Assembly: GCA_036795215.1 (NCBI GenBank)
Contig: DAIRFC010000004.1
Location: 4,822-68,821, forward strand
DNA: 64,000 bases
Source of the DNA: Actinomycetota bacterium
Lineage (GTDB): Bacteria > Actinomycetota > Thermoleophilia > RBG-16-64-13
Direction: 5' to 3'
Shown here: positions 4,021-18,899 of the stretch, piece after piece
Layout of the letters: each line of letters opens with the position of its first letter
How positions within the stretch are numbered: position 1 is the first letter of the stretch
Translations under genes and position numbers: made by a program
The notes under the pieces: generated by a model
What the model was told of the DNA's origin: nothing
The model's input: the letters and a program-made list of their open reading frames with translations, nothing else
Databases searched by the model: none

Positions 4021-4109
4021 GGAAACCCTACGGAGAGGGGGGGATTCGAACCCCCGGGACCGCTTGCGCGGCCCAACGGTTTTCGAGACCGCCGCATTCA
4101 ACCGCTCTG
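4021..4109 (-). tRNA. tRNA-Ser (anticodon CGA), class II with long variable arm
   Basis: Reverse complement folds as GGAGAGG-TG-GCAG..AGCGGTTGAA..anticodon loop CTCGAAA..long variable arm..GGTTCGAATCCCCCC-CCTCTCC-G. No encoded CCA. Confidence 0.85.
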
Positions 4110-4513
4110 CCACCTCTCCCTATCGACTCGGTTCAGAATGAAGCCGCGGCCGCCGAGTCTCCGCATTGAGCGGCACGATGCTACGTCCTCAGTCGCGTCC
4201 GTAGCGCTGCTACGCCCGTTCCTTGCGTCCTTGCCTCGCGCTTGCTCACTGCACCCTGGCGGCGAACCTTCATTCTAACCCGAGTCCTCTGGCGCGTCTG
4301 GCGAGGTCTTCCCGGGGAGCCCCGCGCAGCGCAACGAGGATTGTAGCCGATGGGGCCCTGCCCTGACAGGCACTGCTCCCGGGCGGCCCGTGTCGATAAG
4401 CGGATTCTCATCGCTCGCTCATGCTCGCCTCATGACACGCGGGTAGATTGCCCTCAGTGGAACGGTTCTGACGGTATGCGCCTGAGGGCGCAGGCTTTGA
4501 AAGGAGTAGCGAA

Positions 4514-9095: not shown

Positions 9096-10073
9096 TCACG
9101 CGATGACGATCTCCTCGCCGGCCTTCAACGTCCGGTAGCGCTCGCCGAGCGCTTCCTTGAAGACTCCAAGGCTCCAGTCGCAGCTGTCGTGGGCCGAGAG
9201 CGCCACCAGACTTAGATCGAGACCGGCCAGGAGCGCCGCGGCCGCGCGGGCCTCTTCCCGAGTGATGCGCTGCCAGGGCAGCTTCCCATTGCCGATGATG
9301 TTCTGCCCGCCTTTTCCCACCCGCGAGCCCGTGACGGGGAAGTGCAGCCCACCCACCACTGCGTAGAGCGGAAGACCTGTGACCGCGCGGGCCCGCTCGA
9401 TCATGCGCGATAAGGATGGATGTCCGCAACCCACGATCAGCACCACGCCCTTGCCGGCCACATTGACGAGCAGGTTCTGCTCGAACACGGGGCCACTCAG
9501 CCAGATGGCCCGCATCAGCGGGCCGCTGCTGGCTACGCCCGGCGCCAGCCGGCGCGGCGACTTGATGACCGTCACCCGCCCCGTGGGATAGGCAAGCGGC
9601 GGCGGCAGGAAGATCCGGACACCCTCTAGATCGACGGGCCGCGCCGAGAGGGTGAATGTCTTGTTGGCCTGGGCCTCGCGGCCGCCCACGTGGTCCAGAT
9701 GGCCATGGGAGATGAAGAGCTCATCTATCTCGTCCAGCGACACCCCCAGGATCTTCATGTTGCGCAGGAGGGGTGAGGGGTGCTCGTTCCGCACGTTCCA
9801 GCCGACGTCGAAGAGCAGTCTCTCGTCGTCGAAGGTCACCAGATAGGAGACGCCCGCCTCCGTCGCCAGACCTTCTACGGCGGAGTAGTACTCCACCAAG
9901 GGGAGGATGGAGAGGCGGGTGACGGCGCCAAGACCGGTGATGGCCGAGGGTCGCTCCGTCGCCCACAGCCGGTCGGCCTGTCGTTTGTCGCGCCAGAACT
10001 CAAGGACGGTGTTCGGCCGGGCCATCCCCGAAGCGGCCCAGTAAGCGGCGTATTTCTTCTCGGTGAGCGACAT
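9096..10073 (-). CDS. MBL-fold metallo-hydrolase
   Basis: HxHxDH motif (SHGHLDHVGG). GAGGTG RBS 5 nt before ATG 10073. Confidence 0.8.
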   Translation of the reverse strand: MSLTEKKYAAYWAASGMARPNTVLEFWRDKRQADRLWATERPSAITGLGAVTRLSILPLVEYYSAVEGLATEAGVSYLVTFDDERLLFDVGWNVRNEHPSPLLRNMKILGVSLDEIDELFISHGHLDHVGGREAQANKTFTLSARPVDLEGVRIFLPPPLAYPTGRVTVIKSPRRLAPGVASSGPLMRAIWLSGPVFEQNLLVNVAGKGVVLIVGCGHPSLSRMIERARAVTGLPLYAVVGGLHFPVTGSRVGKGGQNIIGNGKLPWQRITREEARAAAALLAGLDLSLVALSAHDSCDWSLGVFKEALGERYRTLKAGEEIVIA

Positions 10074-10104
10074 CTTTCACCTCGTCTCTGCTACACGGTG
10101 GAGG

Positions 10105-10584
10105 TCACAAGGGTTCCCTTTCCCGGCGTACTGAGAAGAACTGTCGGAGCAACTCGGAGGCTTCGCTTGCCATGACCCCCGCGCGGACCTCAGGATGATG
10201 GTTGAGCGCGGGATGCTCGACGATGTTGAAGATGCTGCCGGCCGCTCCGGCCTTGGGATCGTCGGCCCCGTACACCAGCCTCTTGATCCGTGCCAGCACG
10301 ATGGCGCCGGCGCACATGGCACAGGGCTCCAGGGTGACGTAGAGGGTGGCTTCTCTCAGGCGCCAACCTCCAGCGATAGCCGCCGCGTCGCGCAGCGCGA
10401 GCATTTCAGCGTGGGCGGTGGGGTCGTGTCGGCGTTCGCGTTCGTTGCCGCGGGAGGAGAGGATCGTCCCGTCGATCACCACCAGGGCGCCGACCGGGAC
10501 TTCGCCCTGGGCGGCGGCCCTCCGTGCCTCGTCAAGGGCCAGTGCCATCAGGCGGTGGTCGTCGCTCTCTGAAGAGAAGGCCAC
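10105..10584 (-). CDS. tadA: tRNA adenosine(34) deaminase TadA
   Basis: CMP/dCMP deaminase zinc motifs HAEMLAL and PCAMCAGA. TadA-like N-terminus (..EGEVPVGA). GTG start with GAGAGGA RBS. Confidence 0.9.
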   Translation of the reverse strand: MAFSSESDDHRLMALALDEARRAAAQGEVPVGALVVIDGTILSSRGNERERRHDPTAHAEMLALRDAAAIAGGWRLREATLYVTLEPCAMCAGAIVLARIKRLVYGADDPKAGAAGSIFNIVEHPALNHHPEVRAGVMASEASELLRQFFSVRREREPL

Positions 10585-10726
10585 GGCTCGTTCCTCTCAT
10601 CCAAGTGGTCCTCTCCATTCTACAAGGACGCGCCATCGAGGTAAGTCGCGTGGACGGAGCGGTCCGACAGCGCCGGGACTTTGCTGCCCCGGCCTTGCTG
10701 CCGCGGCTCTTTGTTCCGGAGGCGCC

Positions 10727-10945
10727 CTAGGCCCGCGGGGTGCGCACCTCGCTCATGGTGCCGTCGGAATAGAGGATGTGTAGACCCCGCACCGTGTCCT
10801 CCCGGATATCCAGGTAGATGGCCCTGACGCCGTCTTGGGGCGCTCCGAACTCTATCTCCTGCCTTGTGACCGAGAACTTGCGGAAGGCCACATATCCGAC
10901 GGCCGCCATGAGTATCACGACGCTGACGATGGCCGGCATTATCAT
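10727..10945 (-). CDS. small membrane protein (hypothetical, 72 aa)
   Basis: Internal ATG 10945 (MIMPAIVSVVILMAAVGYVAF..) with GGGAGGGG RBS, one TM helix. The rest of the 200-aa ORF lacks support. Confidence 0.35.
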   Translation of the reverse strand: MIMPAIVSVVILMAAVGYVAFRKFSVTRQEIEFGAPQDGVRAIYLDIREDTVRGLHILYSDGTMSEVRTPRA

Positions 10946-11095
10946 CGAACCCCTCCCGTACTCGTTATCTTGTTGCGACAGTGAGCATAGCGGGCGCACC
11001 GGACAGGAAACCGCACTCTTGACGCCGGCGGCCCGGCGCTGGTAGGTTGCGGCTAGGGTTATCTCTTCGCAACCACTCTCCTCCGGGGGTCGACC

Positions 11096-11728
11096 ATGGC
11101 TCATATCGATTTCACCGACAACTACGAAGACCTCTCGACCGAAAGCGGATACCAGTTCAAGTTCATGTGCGAGCGATGCGGCAACGGCTACATGTCCAGC
11201 TGGAAGGCCAGCAAGAGCGGTATGGCCACCGGGTTGCTCAGGGGCGCCGGTAGTCTGCTGGGGGGTTTCCTGGGGAGCGCCGCCGACAGCGCCGATGACC
11301 TGCGAGATTTGGTGCAAGGCCCCGCCCACGATCGGGCTCTACAGGAGGCCGTTGCTGAGATACGGCCGCTCTTCGTGCAGTGCAAGCGATGTGGTCAATG
11401 GGTGTGTCGCGAGGTCTGCTGGAACGCCGAGAGAGGGCTCTGCACGGAGTGTGCGCCCATCACGCAACGGGAGATCGGCTCCATGCAGGCCCACTACACC
11501 GTAGAGCAGGCCGGGGAGAAGCTCCGTGAGCAGGATCTCACGGCCGGTCTCAACCTGACTGCCAAGGCGGTCGTCATTTGTCCCGCATGCGGAACGGAGA
11601 ACGATGGGGGCAAGTTCTGCCAGGAGTGCGGCGCATCCCTGCTGCCAACGATCGAATGTCCGCGTTGCGGGGCCCAGCTCAAAGCGCGCGCGAAATTCTG
11701 TCCAGAGTGCGGGAACAAGCTGGTCTGA
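11096..11728 (+). CDS. multi-zinc-ribbon domain protein (hypothetical)
   Basis: Four CxxC-containing modules, including two classical zinc ribbons at the C-terminus (CPACG..CQECG; CPRCG..CPECG). No enzymatic domain recognised. Confidence 0.65.
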   Translation: MAHIDFTDNYEDLSTESGYQFKFMCERCGNGYMSSWKASKSGMATGLLRGAGSLLGGFLGSAADSADDLRDLVQGPAHDRALQEAVAEIRPLFVQCKRCGQWVCREVCWNAERGLCTECAPITQREIGSMQAHYTVEQAGEKLREQDLTAGLNLTAKAVVICPACGTENDGGKFCQECGASLLPTIECPRCGAQLKARAKFCPECGNKLV

Positions 11729-12930
11729 TGACCCGAAAAGCCCGCTACAGTCTCGAGGGACGTTCCGGTCAGGCGGAGTGGTCGTTCGATGGGTCGTATC
11801 TCGGCCTGGTACCCGACGCCGGGCCTCCCATGTCGTTCTCGGTCCCTGAGTTCACGGGTATCGCGGGCGACGACTACACTATCGCGCTCACTGTGGCAGG
11901 GGCAGCGCCGGAAGGCAAGCTGGTGCTCTCTCACCTCGGGGCGGACGGACCGACGCTCCTCGACGGGCTGCGGCGGGCCTGGTTACCCGCCCGCGCACAG
12001 GTCCTCCGCCTGAGCGGATCCGGGGAGGGTAGGCCCTTCTCGGGGCAGGTGGCAGGGCTCGAGGGGCGGCCGCCCGAACCCTTTCGGGGCCTACTTTTTG
12101 AGGAAGTGCTCGTGGTGGCCCGCGATGGGTTCGATCTGGATCCTCTCTTTCTGGCCCTCTTCGGGAGCGTGGAACACGACGAGTCCACCTATACCGTCAG
12201 GGTGCGGCAGTGGCCGGGTGAGCAGGTGGTGTTCTCGAAGATGGCGGGGCAGACCGACGAGTTTGCGAGATGGTTGCAGACCAATAGAGCAGAGTTGGCC
12301 GAGGAGTCGGCGGCGATCTTGGCCGCGGGGGCGCCGACGCTGCCGTTGGGTCCGAGAGGCATGCTCGCGGGGATGTGGCTGCCGGGACGGCTTATGGAGC
12401 TCGAGGCCATGGAGGCCGTGTGCCCGGGCGTCATCGAAGCCTTCCGGGGTGCGTGGCTTGCGAGCCTGCCCCGGCATGATGAAGGCGAACACCTGCTGGG
12501 GTGGGCGGCCGGCGGTTCGACGTGGGTGGGTTGCACACGCGGGTCGGGCGGCGGCGCACAGGATGGGGCCACCGCGGGGACCGCTCCGGGCGCGGGCGCG
12601 GAAGGTCACCTATGGCTTCTCTGCGGCAAGAACGGCGTGTGGTTCTTGGAAGCGTTGTCCATCGAAGACCGGGCCACGTACTGCTTCACCGGCGGTGAAG
12701 AGGTGCCGGCGCTGGTTTCACGGCTCCTTTGCGCGCCTCAGTTCTCTCGCGAGGCCCTGTACAGCCCGCTTGCCGAGCTGACCGGGGAGAGCGCCGATCT
12801 CGCGATCGCGGCTCAGGCCCTGGACTTCTTGGTGGAACTACGGCGCCGCTTCAAAGACCGGGTGATCCATCAGACCACAGAAGGCTGGAAACGAGACGTC
12901 GGAAGACTCGGCGACGACGCGCGAATTTGA
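11728..12930 (+). CDS. hypothetical protein (400 aa), translationally coupled to zinc-ribbon gene
   Basis: ATG 11728 overlaps the upstream stop (TGATG). No recognisable domain. Coding-like codon usage over the whole length. Followed by a bidirectional terminator. Confidence 0.55.
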   Translation: MTRKARYSLEGRSGQAEWSFDGSYLGLVPDAGPPMSFSVPEFTGIAGDDYTIALTVAGAAPEGKLVLSHLGADGPTLLDGLRRAWLPARAQVLRLSGSGEGRPFSGQVAGLEGRPPEPFRGLLFEEVLVVARDGFDLDPLFLALFGSVEHDESTYTVRVRQWPGEQVVFSKMAGQTDEFARWLQTNRAELAEESAAILAAGAPTLPLGPRGMLAGMWLPGRLMELEAMEAVCPGVIEAFRGAWLASLPRHDEGEHLLGWAAGGSTWVGCTRGSGGGAQDGATAGTAPGAGAEGHLWLLCGKNGVWFLEALSIEDRATYCFTGGEEVPALVSRLLCAPQFSREALYSPLAELTGESADLAIAAQALDFLVELRRRFKDRVIHQTTEGWKRDVGRLGDDARI

Positions 12931-12995
12931 CAGTGGGCGCCCGGGGGAGCCCCTTCGCCCCCGGCACTGAGAGGTAGCGACGCGCCCTTGCAGAC

Positions 12996-13027
12996 AAAAA
13001 GCGAGCCCCGAGCGAACTCGCTTTGCG
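12996..13027. terminator. bidirectional rho-independent terminator between convergent genes
   Basis: AAAAAGCGAG-CCCCGAGCGAA-CTCGCTTTG: a GC stem flanked by an A-tract on one side and a T-tract on the other. Lies between the hypothetical gene (+) and carB (-). Confidence 0.55.
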
Positions 13028-13273
13028 CCTTTCAACAGTTCTCACTTCGTCCCCGCTTCGCTGTAATCCGCGGTCATTTGTCTCCGCGTTTCCTCTGCGG
13101 GTCCCCTTGTAAGCACCTCAGACGCTGCGTCTGAACTCTCGGGACTCTGGTAATGATTCTAGACTTCTTTTCGAGGAAGTCAATGGACCTGCAGCCCTTC
13201 GCGAACAGGAAAACATCGCTCCCAGCGGGTGCCCGCAGCGGCCTCGATATTCGCTCAGAGCGGCCCCGTCTTC

Positions 13274-18695: not shown

Positions 18696-18697
18696 AG

Positions 18698-18771
18698 CGC
18701 GCCTGACGCGACTCGAACGCGTGACCTTTGGTTTCGTAGACCAACGCTCTATCCAACTGAGCTACAGGCGC
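18698..18771 (-). tRNA. tRNA-Arg (anticodon ACG)
   Basis: Reverse complement GCGCCTG-TA-GCTCAGTTGGATAGAGC-GTTGGTCTACGAAACCAAA(ACG loop)-GGTCACGCGTTCGAGTCGCGTC-CAGGCGC-G. Confidence 0.85.
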
Positions 18772-18808
18772 ATATTTCAGTCCGCCGACCCAGTCCCGGC
18801 AGCCCGAG

Positions 18809-18899
18809 CGGAGAAGGAGGGATTCGAACCCTCGGAAGGAGCATTCACTCCTTCACTCGCTTAGCAGGCGAGCGCCTTCAGCCTCTCGGCCACTTCTCC
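18809..18899 (-). tRNA. tRNA-Ser (anticodon GCT), class II
   Basis: Reverse complement GGAGAAG-TG-GCCGAGAGGCTGAAGGC..CTGCTAA loop..long variable arm..GGTTCGAATCCCTC-CTTCTCC-G. Confidence 0.85.

Follow-up and report, generated by a model that had tools for sequence, protein, structure and literature searches.

A translationally coupled bacterial gene pair encoding a conserved zinc-finger protein and a protein with two predicted PH-like domains

In most discussions, tandem pleckstrin homology (PH) domains and FYVE/RING-like zinc fingers figure as adaptor and membrane modules of eukaryotes. Bacterial PH domains (PHb: PF08000, PF03703 and others) are already known (Xu et al. 2010, PMC2817789), prokaryotic binuclear treble clefs are cited as already known in PMC4506424, and Phafin-type proteins (PMC9324892) combine a PH-like module with a FYVE-like finger. 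Here, we characterize two adjacent open reading frames, ORF1 and ORF2, in a 64,000-nt stretch of DNA from an Actinomycetota bacterium (assembly GCA_036795215.1, contig DAIRFC010000004.1, positions 4,822 to 68,821 of the forward strand), to which we refer as the window and whose numbering is used throughout. The pair is a self-contained, translationally coupled, chromosomal two-gene operon, and its products are predicted to contain the two kinds of fold named above, the finger in ORF1 and the tandem PH-like domains in ORF2. The operon is laid out as follows.

11096..11728 (ATG 11096, TGA 11726-11728), plus strand: ORF1, 210 aa, with 16 conserved Cys, a predicted four-zinc protein
11728..12930 (ATG 11728, TGA 12928-12930), plus strand: ORF2, 400 aa, acidic (isoelectric point, pI, 4.9); AlphaFold2 (AF2) model with a predicted local distance difference test score (pLDDT) of 92.8 and a predicted template-modelling score (pTM) of 0.91
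11726..11730, plus strand: TGATG stop/start overlap of ORF1 and ORF2

The coordinates and lengths of both ORFs and their TGATG overlap are exactly those of the original prediction, which was made from the letters of the window alone and read the pair as a unit of its own. The overlap indicates translational coupling of ORF1 and ORF2. Because the upstream genes lie on the opposite strand and the downstream gene, carB, converges on the pair, ORF1-ORF2 is its own transcription unit, and the pair also recurs in unrelated genomic contexts. Both ORFs are genuine, conserved coding genes. The GC content by codon position is 0.61/0.50/0.77 in ORF1 and 0.71/0.53/0.78 in ORF2, with neighbouring genes alike, and the possibility raised earlier that ORF2 might be non-coding is removed by its 134 homologues (41–99% identity), its normal codon-position GC and its confident AF2 model. 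The exact ORF1 and ORF2 proteins are present in public databases, from an Actinomycetota metagenome-assembled genome (MAG), where ORF1 is named 'zinc ribbon domain-containing protein' (NLE11139.1) and a 'hypothetical protein' (NLE11138.1) is a partial cluster member of ORF2.

The two genes differ in how widely they occur. More than 2,000 ORF1 homologues were found in 90% clusters, nearly all of them 209–211 aa long, and ORF1 is 62–88% identical to the 120 homologues listed from these clusters. With each GTDB species represented by one genome, relatives turned up in at least 531 of the genomes scanned, spread over about ten phyla. The best 80 of these (at least 531) relatives are 50–81% identical to ORF1 and come from Actinomycetota, Acidobacteriota (many), Armatimonadota, Eremiobacterota/Vulcanimicrobiota, Gemmatimonadota, Chloroflexota, Betaproteobacteria, Symbiobacteriaceae, WS1 and Verrucomicrobiota. 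Over the full length, relatives share 50–88% identity across phyla, and an exhaustive phmmer search with ORF1 residues 1–150 returned 755 representatives at 50% clustering. ORF2 is rarer; its 134 homologues are all unnamed or 'hypothetical', and a Pfam domain is present in none of them. All records that we encountered are MAGs.

The pairing itself is asymmetric. Using an iterated hidden Markov model search over the ORFs of fetched genome loci, we detected an ORF2 homologue at 46 of the 77 loci with ORF1 and enough downstream sequence, nearly always immediately downstream and on the same strand; at the other 31 loci, ORF1 is followed by unrelated genes (NIL domain, TPR-LuxR, histidine kinase, SnoaL and glycosyltransferase). 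As a reverse test, 28 metagenome loci were fetched through ORF2. ORF1 lies directly upstream on the same strand at all 22 of those with enough upstream DNA, and the junction is tight or overlapping in about 14 of the 22. ORF2 appears never to occur without ORF1. Consequently, since ORF2 is always accompanied by ORF1 (22 of 22) but ORF1 by ORF2 at 46 of 77 loci, ORF1 is the core member of the pair and ORF2 the accessory one, and the same dependence leads to our hypothesis that ORF2 should be an ORF1-binding subunit. The search for a conserved neighbourhood that the original prediction proposed shows that the pair is conserved in unrelated genomic contexts, while no third conserved gene emerged from clustering the neighbours over 83 genome loci. 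Large neighbour clusters were considered as a third gene and rejected, being shadow ORFs of ORF1.

Other arrangements were observed at individual loci. At six of them (L038, L039, L040, L046, L050 and L063), the order is ZnR-ORF2-ZnR2, in which a second, diverged ORF1 paralogue (ZnR2) comes directly after ORF2; at L036, ZnR2 directly follows ZnR and no ORF2 was detected. All seven belong to Armatimonadota, 'Zipacnadia' or WS1. On a 3.3-Mb contig (L001), whose ORF2 is 44% identical to ours, an IS21-type transposase/IstB pair (10042-12068) lies about 850 nt downstream of ORF1-ORF2.

ORF1 is organized into the following segments.

11096..11215, plus strand: residues 1-40, N-terminal beta-hairpins, highly conserved and bearing the first zinc knuckle, C25xxC28
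11216..11302, plus strand: residues 41-69, conserved Gly/Ala/Leu-rich segment with a GxxxGxxxG pattern
11318..11458, plus strand: residues 75-121, helix with invariant H78/D79, then C96xxC99-x4-C104xxxC108-x7-C116xxC119
11450..11530, plus strand: residues 119-145, long helix after the finger, as in FYVE-type fingers
11576..11713, plus strand: residues 161-206, double zinc ribbon, Pfam DZR PF12773

The 16 Cys of ORF1 form eight pairs (C25/C28, C96/C99, C104/C108, C116/C119, C162/C165, C175/C178, C188/C191 and C202/C205), seven of them CxxC and one CxxxC (C104-C108). Across 79 aligned homologues, each of the 16 is fully or almost fully conserved, and the pattern is therefore not due to chance. 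The original prediction had counted four CxxC...CxxC modules, two of them zinc ribbons at the C-terminus; the number of Cys and the double ribbon stand, one pair is CxxxC rather than CxxC, and the first eight Cys would make up one finger instead of two modules. Going by the predicted structure, these eight residues would form a single cross-braced binuclear FYVE/RING-like finger, not two ribbons, that would be split by the conserved Gly-rich amphipathic loop; with the ribbons, ORF1 would carry four zinc ions in total. The C-terminus is a bona fide DZR: residues 162–206 match the profile end to end (1–45 of 45) with 40.9 bits against a gathering threshold of 27.3. DZR is a generic module, however, and accounts only for the last 50 residues of ORF1, and no Pfam, NCBIfam, PADLOC or PHROG model covers the first 160 residues. 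The nearest model for the finger is Prok-RING_2 (PF14445, a prokaryotic binuclear treble-clef finger), to which residues 94–122 align with 19.7–20.5 bits, below the gathering threshold of 22.4 and over only half of the model; 12 of 150 ORF1-family representatives match it at E <= 1e-4 (best 1.3e-6). Searches of PDB sequence profiles with both proteins returned generic ribbon matches only.

The AF2 model of ORF1 has a mean pLDDT of 74, rising above 90 for residues ~80–135, and runs from N-terminal hairpins with C25xxC28 through a low-confidence stretch (42–69), a helix (76–92), the knuckles and a second helix (119–145) to the ribbons. Invariant residues of the N-terminal segment are F6, T7, N9, S14, T15, G18, Q20 and F23. 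The Gly-rich segment (28% Gly, 16% Ala, 14% Leu and almost no charge) contains invariant G42, R49, G56 and G57, and its residues 41–64, if helical, have a hydrophobic moment of 0.44–0.48, the highest in the protein. In 3 of 150 ORF1-family representatives, the ribbons are replaced by a Pro-rich linker and DUF4190, a domain with two transmembrane segments; P0341 and P0343 are relatives of the ORF1 N-domain with this architecture. The automatic names given to the 210-aa family by the Joint Genome Institute (JGI) are inconsistent ("membrane protease subunit (stomatin/prohibitin family)", "ribosomal protein L32", "eIF-2beta" and "RNA polymerase subunit M/TFIIS") and all seem to have been triggered by generic zinc ribbons.

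ORF2 is divided as follows.

11728..12012, plus strand: residues 1-95, PH-like domain 1, seven strands and a C-terminal helix
12019..12336, plus strand: residues 98-203, PH-like domain 2, internal duplicate of domain 1
12337..12927, plus strand: residues 204-400, helical linker and alpha/beta C-terminal domain with the motif LLCAPQFSREALY
12550..12597, plus strand: residues 275-290, disordered insertion, variable in length across the family and often acidic

The description of ORF2 as a protein with no recognizable motif is right for its sequence and wrong for its predicted structure. Searched whole and by domain, ORF2 has no match in Pfam, NCBIfam, PADLOC or PHROGs, and a broadened profile search returned the same 134 proteins, with no fusions and no Pfam domains. 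The AF2 model contains two seven-stranded, helix-capped sandwiches (residues 3–92 and 102–201), a four-helix linker and an alpha/beta domain (264–397), and on this model ORF2 is not domain-less but has two PH-like domains. By profile-profile comparison, domains 1 and 2 are duplicates of each other (91%, E 1e-6); a reading of the C-terminal domain as a third PH copy was rejected (hhalign probability <10%). In a broad alignment reaching down to 18–25% identity, the invariant or near-invariant residues (G220, R249, E308, A316, T317, Y318, F320, F339, R372, R378, H381 and W387) are confined to the C-terminal half and, H381 excepted, do not include a catalytic-looking Ser/Cys/Lys/His set. This pattern of conservation suggests not so much an obvious catalytic centre as a putative binding pocket, for a client or ligand, lined by the polar residues among them (E308, Y318, R372, R378, H381 and W387). 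The PH-like domains have pI values of 5.7 and 4.5, and no basic beta1-beta2 residues are found among their conserved columns.

Unusual forms of ORF2 were also encountered. An Acidobacteriaceae MAG contains a homologue (L065:3524-4954, minus strand in the locus) with a CxxC...CxxC zinc ribbon between the two PH-like domains, and this gene is located upstream of ORF1 on the opposite strand, not downstream. A 602-aa protein (P0115) from a 90-kb ENA contig was considered as a natural ORF1-ORF2 fusion and rejected, as its middle is out of frame; it is most likely an assembly frameshift. Likewise, the split ORF2 of L005, L007, L011 and L028 was rejected as a natural two-gene form, because PH domain 2 is itself interrupted by the break and several of these loci are from long-read MAGs.

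Very likely, the locus is a real operon encoding zinc-finger and tandem-PH proteins that interact. Translational coupling and the strict dependence of ORF2 on ORF1 make a physical 1:1 complex the most economical explanation. Our overall model, which we put forward tentatively as a possible one, is a peripheral-membrane adaptor: the two products would assemble into a stoichiometric complex without enzymatic activity, located in the cytoplasm against the inner face of the membrane. ORF1 would be its conserved core, composed of the eight-Cys finger with its Gly-rich amphipathic loop, the long helix and the double zinc ribbon, and would dock at the membrane through the loop and the finger. ORF2 would be an accessory adaptor, with two PH-like domains and a conserved alpha/beta domain, that attaches to ORF1 and either recruits a partner or senses one. 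Proteins with PH/PTB-like folds typically serve as adaptors for peptides, proteins or lipids, and an adaptor role for ORF2 fits this pattern. The inner membrane face is proposed because of the amphipathic character of the Gly-rich loop, the transmembrane-anchored relatives of ORF1 and the position of the loop, which we take to be where the membrane-insertion loop of FYVE domains lies. A membrane-related role for the pair, one of several roles that the original prediction had suggested, is plausible in general terms, and the specific membrane part of our model is somewhat doubtful.

Several observations weigh against this model. ORF1 clearly functions without an adjacent ORF2, and we found no convincing ORF1 positions specific to genomes that have one; an ORF1-ORF2 interface is therefore not visible in the sequence. 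The AF2 confidence of the Gly-rich loop (42–69) is low, neither protein has a transmembrane segment, and both are acidic. The signatures by which FYVE domains bind phosphatidylinositol 3-phosphate and lipids (WxxD, R(R/K)HHCR and RVC) are absent from ORF1 in the alignment of 79 homologues: the corresponding site reads F93-x-Q95-C96-K97-R98-C99-G100, with no His or Arg before C96, and no WxxD precedes C25. In ORF1 itself, this site is F-V-Q-C-K-R-C-G. The PH-like domains of ORF2 have no evident basic pocket, and fold resemblance alone says nothing on lipid binding. A more ambitious version of the model, in which a FYVE-like finger bearing an ALPS-like loop that senses curvature or packing would act with the tandem PH domains as a prokaryotic membrane-recognition complex, is quite unlikely. 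If true, it would constitute a previously unrecognized bacterial system for peripheral-membrane targeting or remodelling, with folds as in eukaryotic phosphoinositide-guided trafficking, that is widespread in soil phyla (Acidobacteriota, Actinomycetota, Armatimonadota, Eremiobacterota and Gemmatimonadota).

The identity of 50–88% among ORF1 proteins across phyla is typical of factors that touch universal machinery, and ORF1 could instead bind a nucleic-acid machine (the ribosome, RNA polymerase or DNA) via its ribbons and finger, with ORF2 modulating or chaperoning it like the tandem-PH histone chaperones. Zinc ribbons often bind nucleic acids or proteins (PMC3581485), the ribbon part of ORF1 is mildly basic (pI 8.2), Rtt106, Spt16M and Pob3M are among the Foldseek matches of ORF2, and ORF2 is acidic, with a variable insertion that is often acidic as well. 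We nevertheless regard nucleic-acid binding as unlikely: the overall pI of ORF1 is 5.5, it has no helix-turn-helix or known RNA-binding motif, bL32 and other ribosomal ribbons match it only weakly (E 0.05–0.8), its patchy phyletic distribution speaks against a core housekeeping factor, and its transmembrane-anchored relatives point to the membrane. The 16 invariant Cys within 210 aa, together with the conserved flexible Gly-rich segment, would also suit a zinc- or redox-responsive switch or holdase, in which oxidation or zinc loss at these Cys unfolds ORF1 and ORF2 reads or buffers its state. An HSP20 match in 1 of 150 ORF1-family representatives points the same way, but it is a single case, in a member that was not identified and is possibly a miscalled ORF. 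The zinc sites of ribbons are by default taken to be structural, the neighbours clustered over 83 loci include no conserved thioredoxin, peroxiredoxin or zinc-homeostasis genes, and a switch of this kind seems distinctly improbable.

The suggestion that the pair is a defence module, also part of the original prediction, fares worse. A two-gene unit with a patchy distribution, adjoined in L001 by an IS21 element, could in principle be an anti-phage or toxin-type module, yet there is no match in PADLOC (PADLOC-DB 2.0), PHROG matches cover the generic ribbon only, and the ORF1 N-domain was found in none of 72,556 plasmids and 50,697 phages (tblastn) nor in a scan of IMG/VR. The flanking genes are housekeeping genes (tadA and carB), no defence neighbours recur among the 83 loci, the very high conservation of ORF1 is atypical of defence genes, and neither a nuclease, an NTPase nor an effector domain is present, which together make defence very improbable. 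It is still harder to credit ORF1 as a RING-type, E3-like component of prokaryotic ubiquitin-like conjugation, with ORF2 as a GLUE-like PH protein that binds the ubiquitin-like modifier (Ubl). The similarity of ORF1 to Prok-RING_2 and the zinc ribbon inserted between the PH domains of one ORF2 homologue (L065) would agree with such a role, but no E1, E2, Ubl or JAB genes occur at any of the 83 clustered genome loci, ORF1 has no counterpart of the RING His ligand, and its first two Cys pairs are spaced by 67 residues. The peripheral-membrane adaptor complex is kept as a tentative working model.

The surroundings of the operon contain the following features.

9096-10073: metallo-beta-lactamase (MBL)-fold gene next to tadA
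10105-10584, minus strand: tadA (Pfam deaminase match, E 1e-37)
between tadA and ORF1, minus strand: membrane ORF of ~72 aa, just upstream of ORF1
12941..12964, plus strand: GC-rich hairpin directly 3' of the ORF2 stop, without a U-tail
12996..13149, minus strand: convergent candidate small RNA (sRNA) of ~155 nt with a strong intrinsic terminator, a boundary feature outside the module
13183-13156, minus strand: sRNA promoter, invariant TTGACT-N16/17-TAGAAT, sigma-70-like

The upstream flank, tadA and a small membrane gene on the minus strand, is as originally described. In a syntenic relative (L003:5064-6521), a tadA-like deaminase is fused to a cation-efflux (CDF) transporter and called as one 485-aa product, unlike the separate tadA gene of the window. 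Three tRNA genes are present in the window, all on the minus strand (Ser-CGA 4031-4119, Arg-ACG 18697-18771 and Ser-GCT 18808-18899). The downstream flank had been read as a bidirectional terminator. A hairpin with a T-run is indeed there, but a good fold is predicted for the minus strand alone (-22.4 kcal/mol, z-score -2.84, compared with -9.5 kcal/mol and 0 on the plus strand), and the hairpin belongs to the convergent candidate sRNA gene. The hairpin at 12941..12964, whose stability is no better than that of shuffled sequence, may be the end of the operon transcript.

Across ten syntenic loci, the 270-nt region between ORF2 and carB keeps 74–84% identity, against only ~52–60% for the ORF2 proteins encoded there. 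RNAalifold predicts a rod-like fold for the candidate sRNA, with 39 pairs, 98.7% of cells paired and six pairs with compensatory changes; not one of 500 shuffles scored as high, and pairing in slid controls was 29–47%. A coding reading of this conserved element was rejected, as its short ORF is not conserved in length and its substitutions are compensatory in helices. Rfam 15 gave no match at gathering and one chance-level match at E <= 10 (E 9.5, on the plus strand, outside the transcript). In the alignment, a second conserved, hairpin-rich stretch (~13195-13273, minus strand), ending in GATGTTTTCC, directly follows the carB stop and precedes the sRNA promoter, and probably serves as the terminator of carB itself.

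ORF1 represents a large, unusually conserved protein family in which neither Pfam nor NCBIfam models the N-terminal 160 residues, and ORF2 a structurally confident family without any sequence annotation. Once their function is defined, thousands of genes now called "zinc ribbon" or "hypothetical" would be annotated in dominant, poorly cultured soil phyla, and light could be shed on the use of such adaptor folds before eukaryotes. We found no description of a FYVE-like/PH-like bacterial pair in the searchable literature; the fold types are known in prokaryotes, and the pair is not categorically new.

Compared with FYVE-type and FYVE-like fingers (CARP2 1y02, RUFY1, endofin, Hrs, EEA1 and the Rab-effector fingers of rabphilin, RIM2 and melanophilin), ORF1 is bacterial, is fused to a double zinc ribbon and has a 67-residue insertion with the Gly-rich loop between Cys pairs 1 and 2. 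Its predicted finger is FYVE-like in fold only, and lies outside both FYVE and Prok-RING_2 as these are defined by sequence. The predicted structure of ORF2 displays the seven-stranded beta-sandwich and C-terminal helix cap that characterize the PH-like fold superfamily, and Foldseek matches it to eukaryotic tandem PH or PH-PTB (phosphotyrosine-binding) modules (centaurin alpha-1, Dok7, IRS-1, Rtt106 and Spt16M/Pob3M), with identities of 8–13% and whole-chain TM-scores of 0.2–0.3. Such low whole-chain scores mean that its inter-domain geometry differs from that of the eukaryotic tandems, from which ORF2 also differs in being acidic, in having no evident phosphoinositide pocket and in its extra conserved C-terminal domain. 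With bacterial PHb proteins, ORF2 has the fold in common, but these are ring-forming single domains, whereas ORF2 is a tandem with a C-terminal domain, and the isolated ORF2 domains match none of the bacterial PH families of Pfam (bPH_1 to bPH_6) even at E <= 10. As far as its model goes, ORF2 belongs to the PH-like fold class, outside the described sequence families. Phafin-type proteins are a functional analogue only, with no homology claimed: a PH-like module and a FYVE-like finger are common to both systems, and the bacterial pair carries them on separate polypeptides that lack the lipid-binding signatures.

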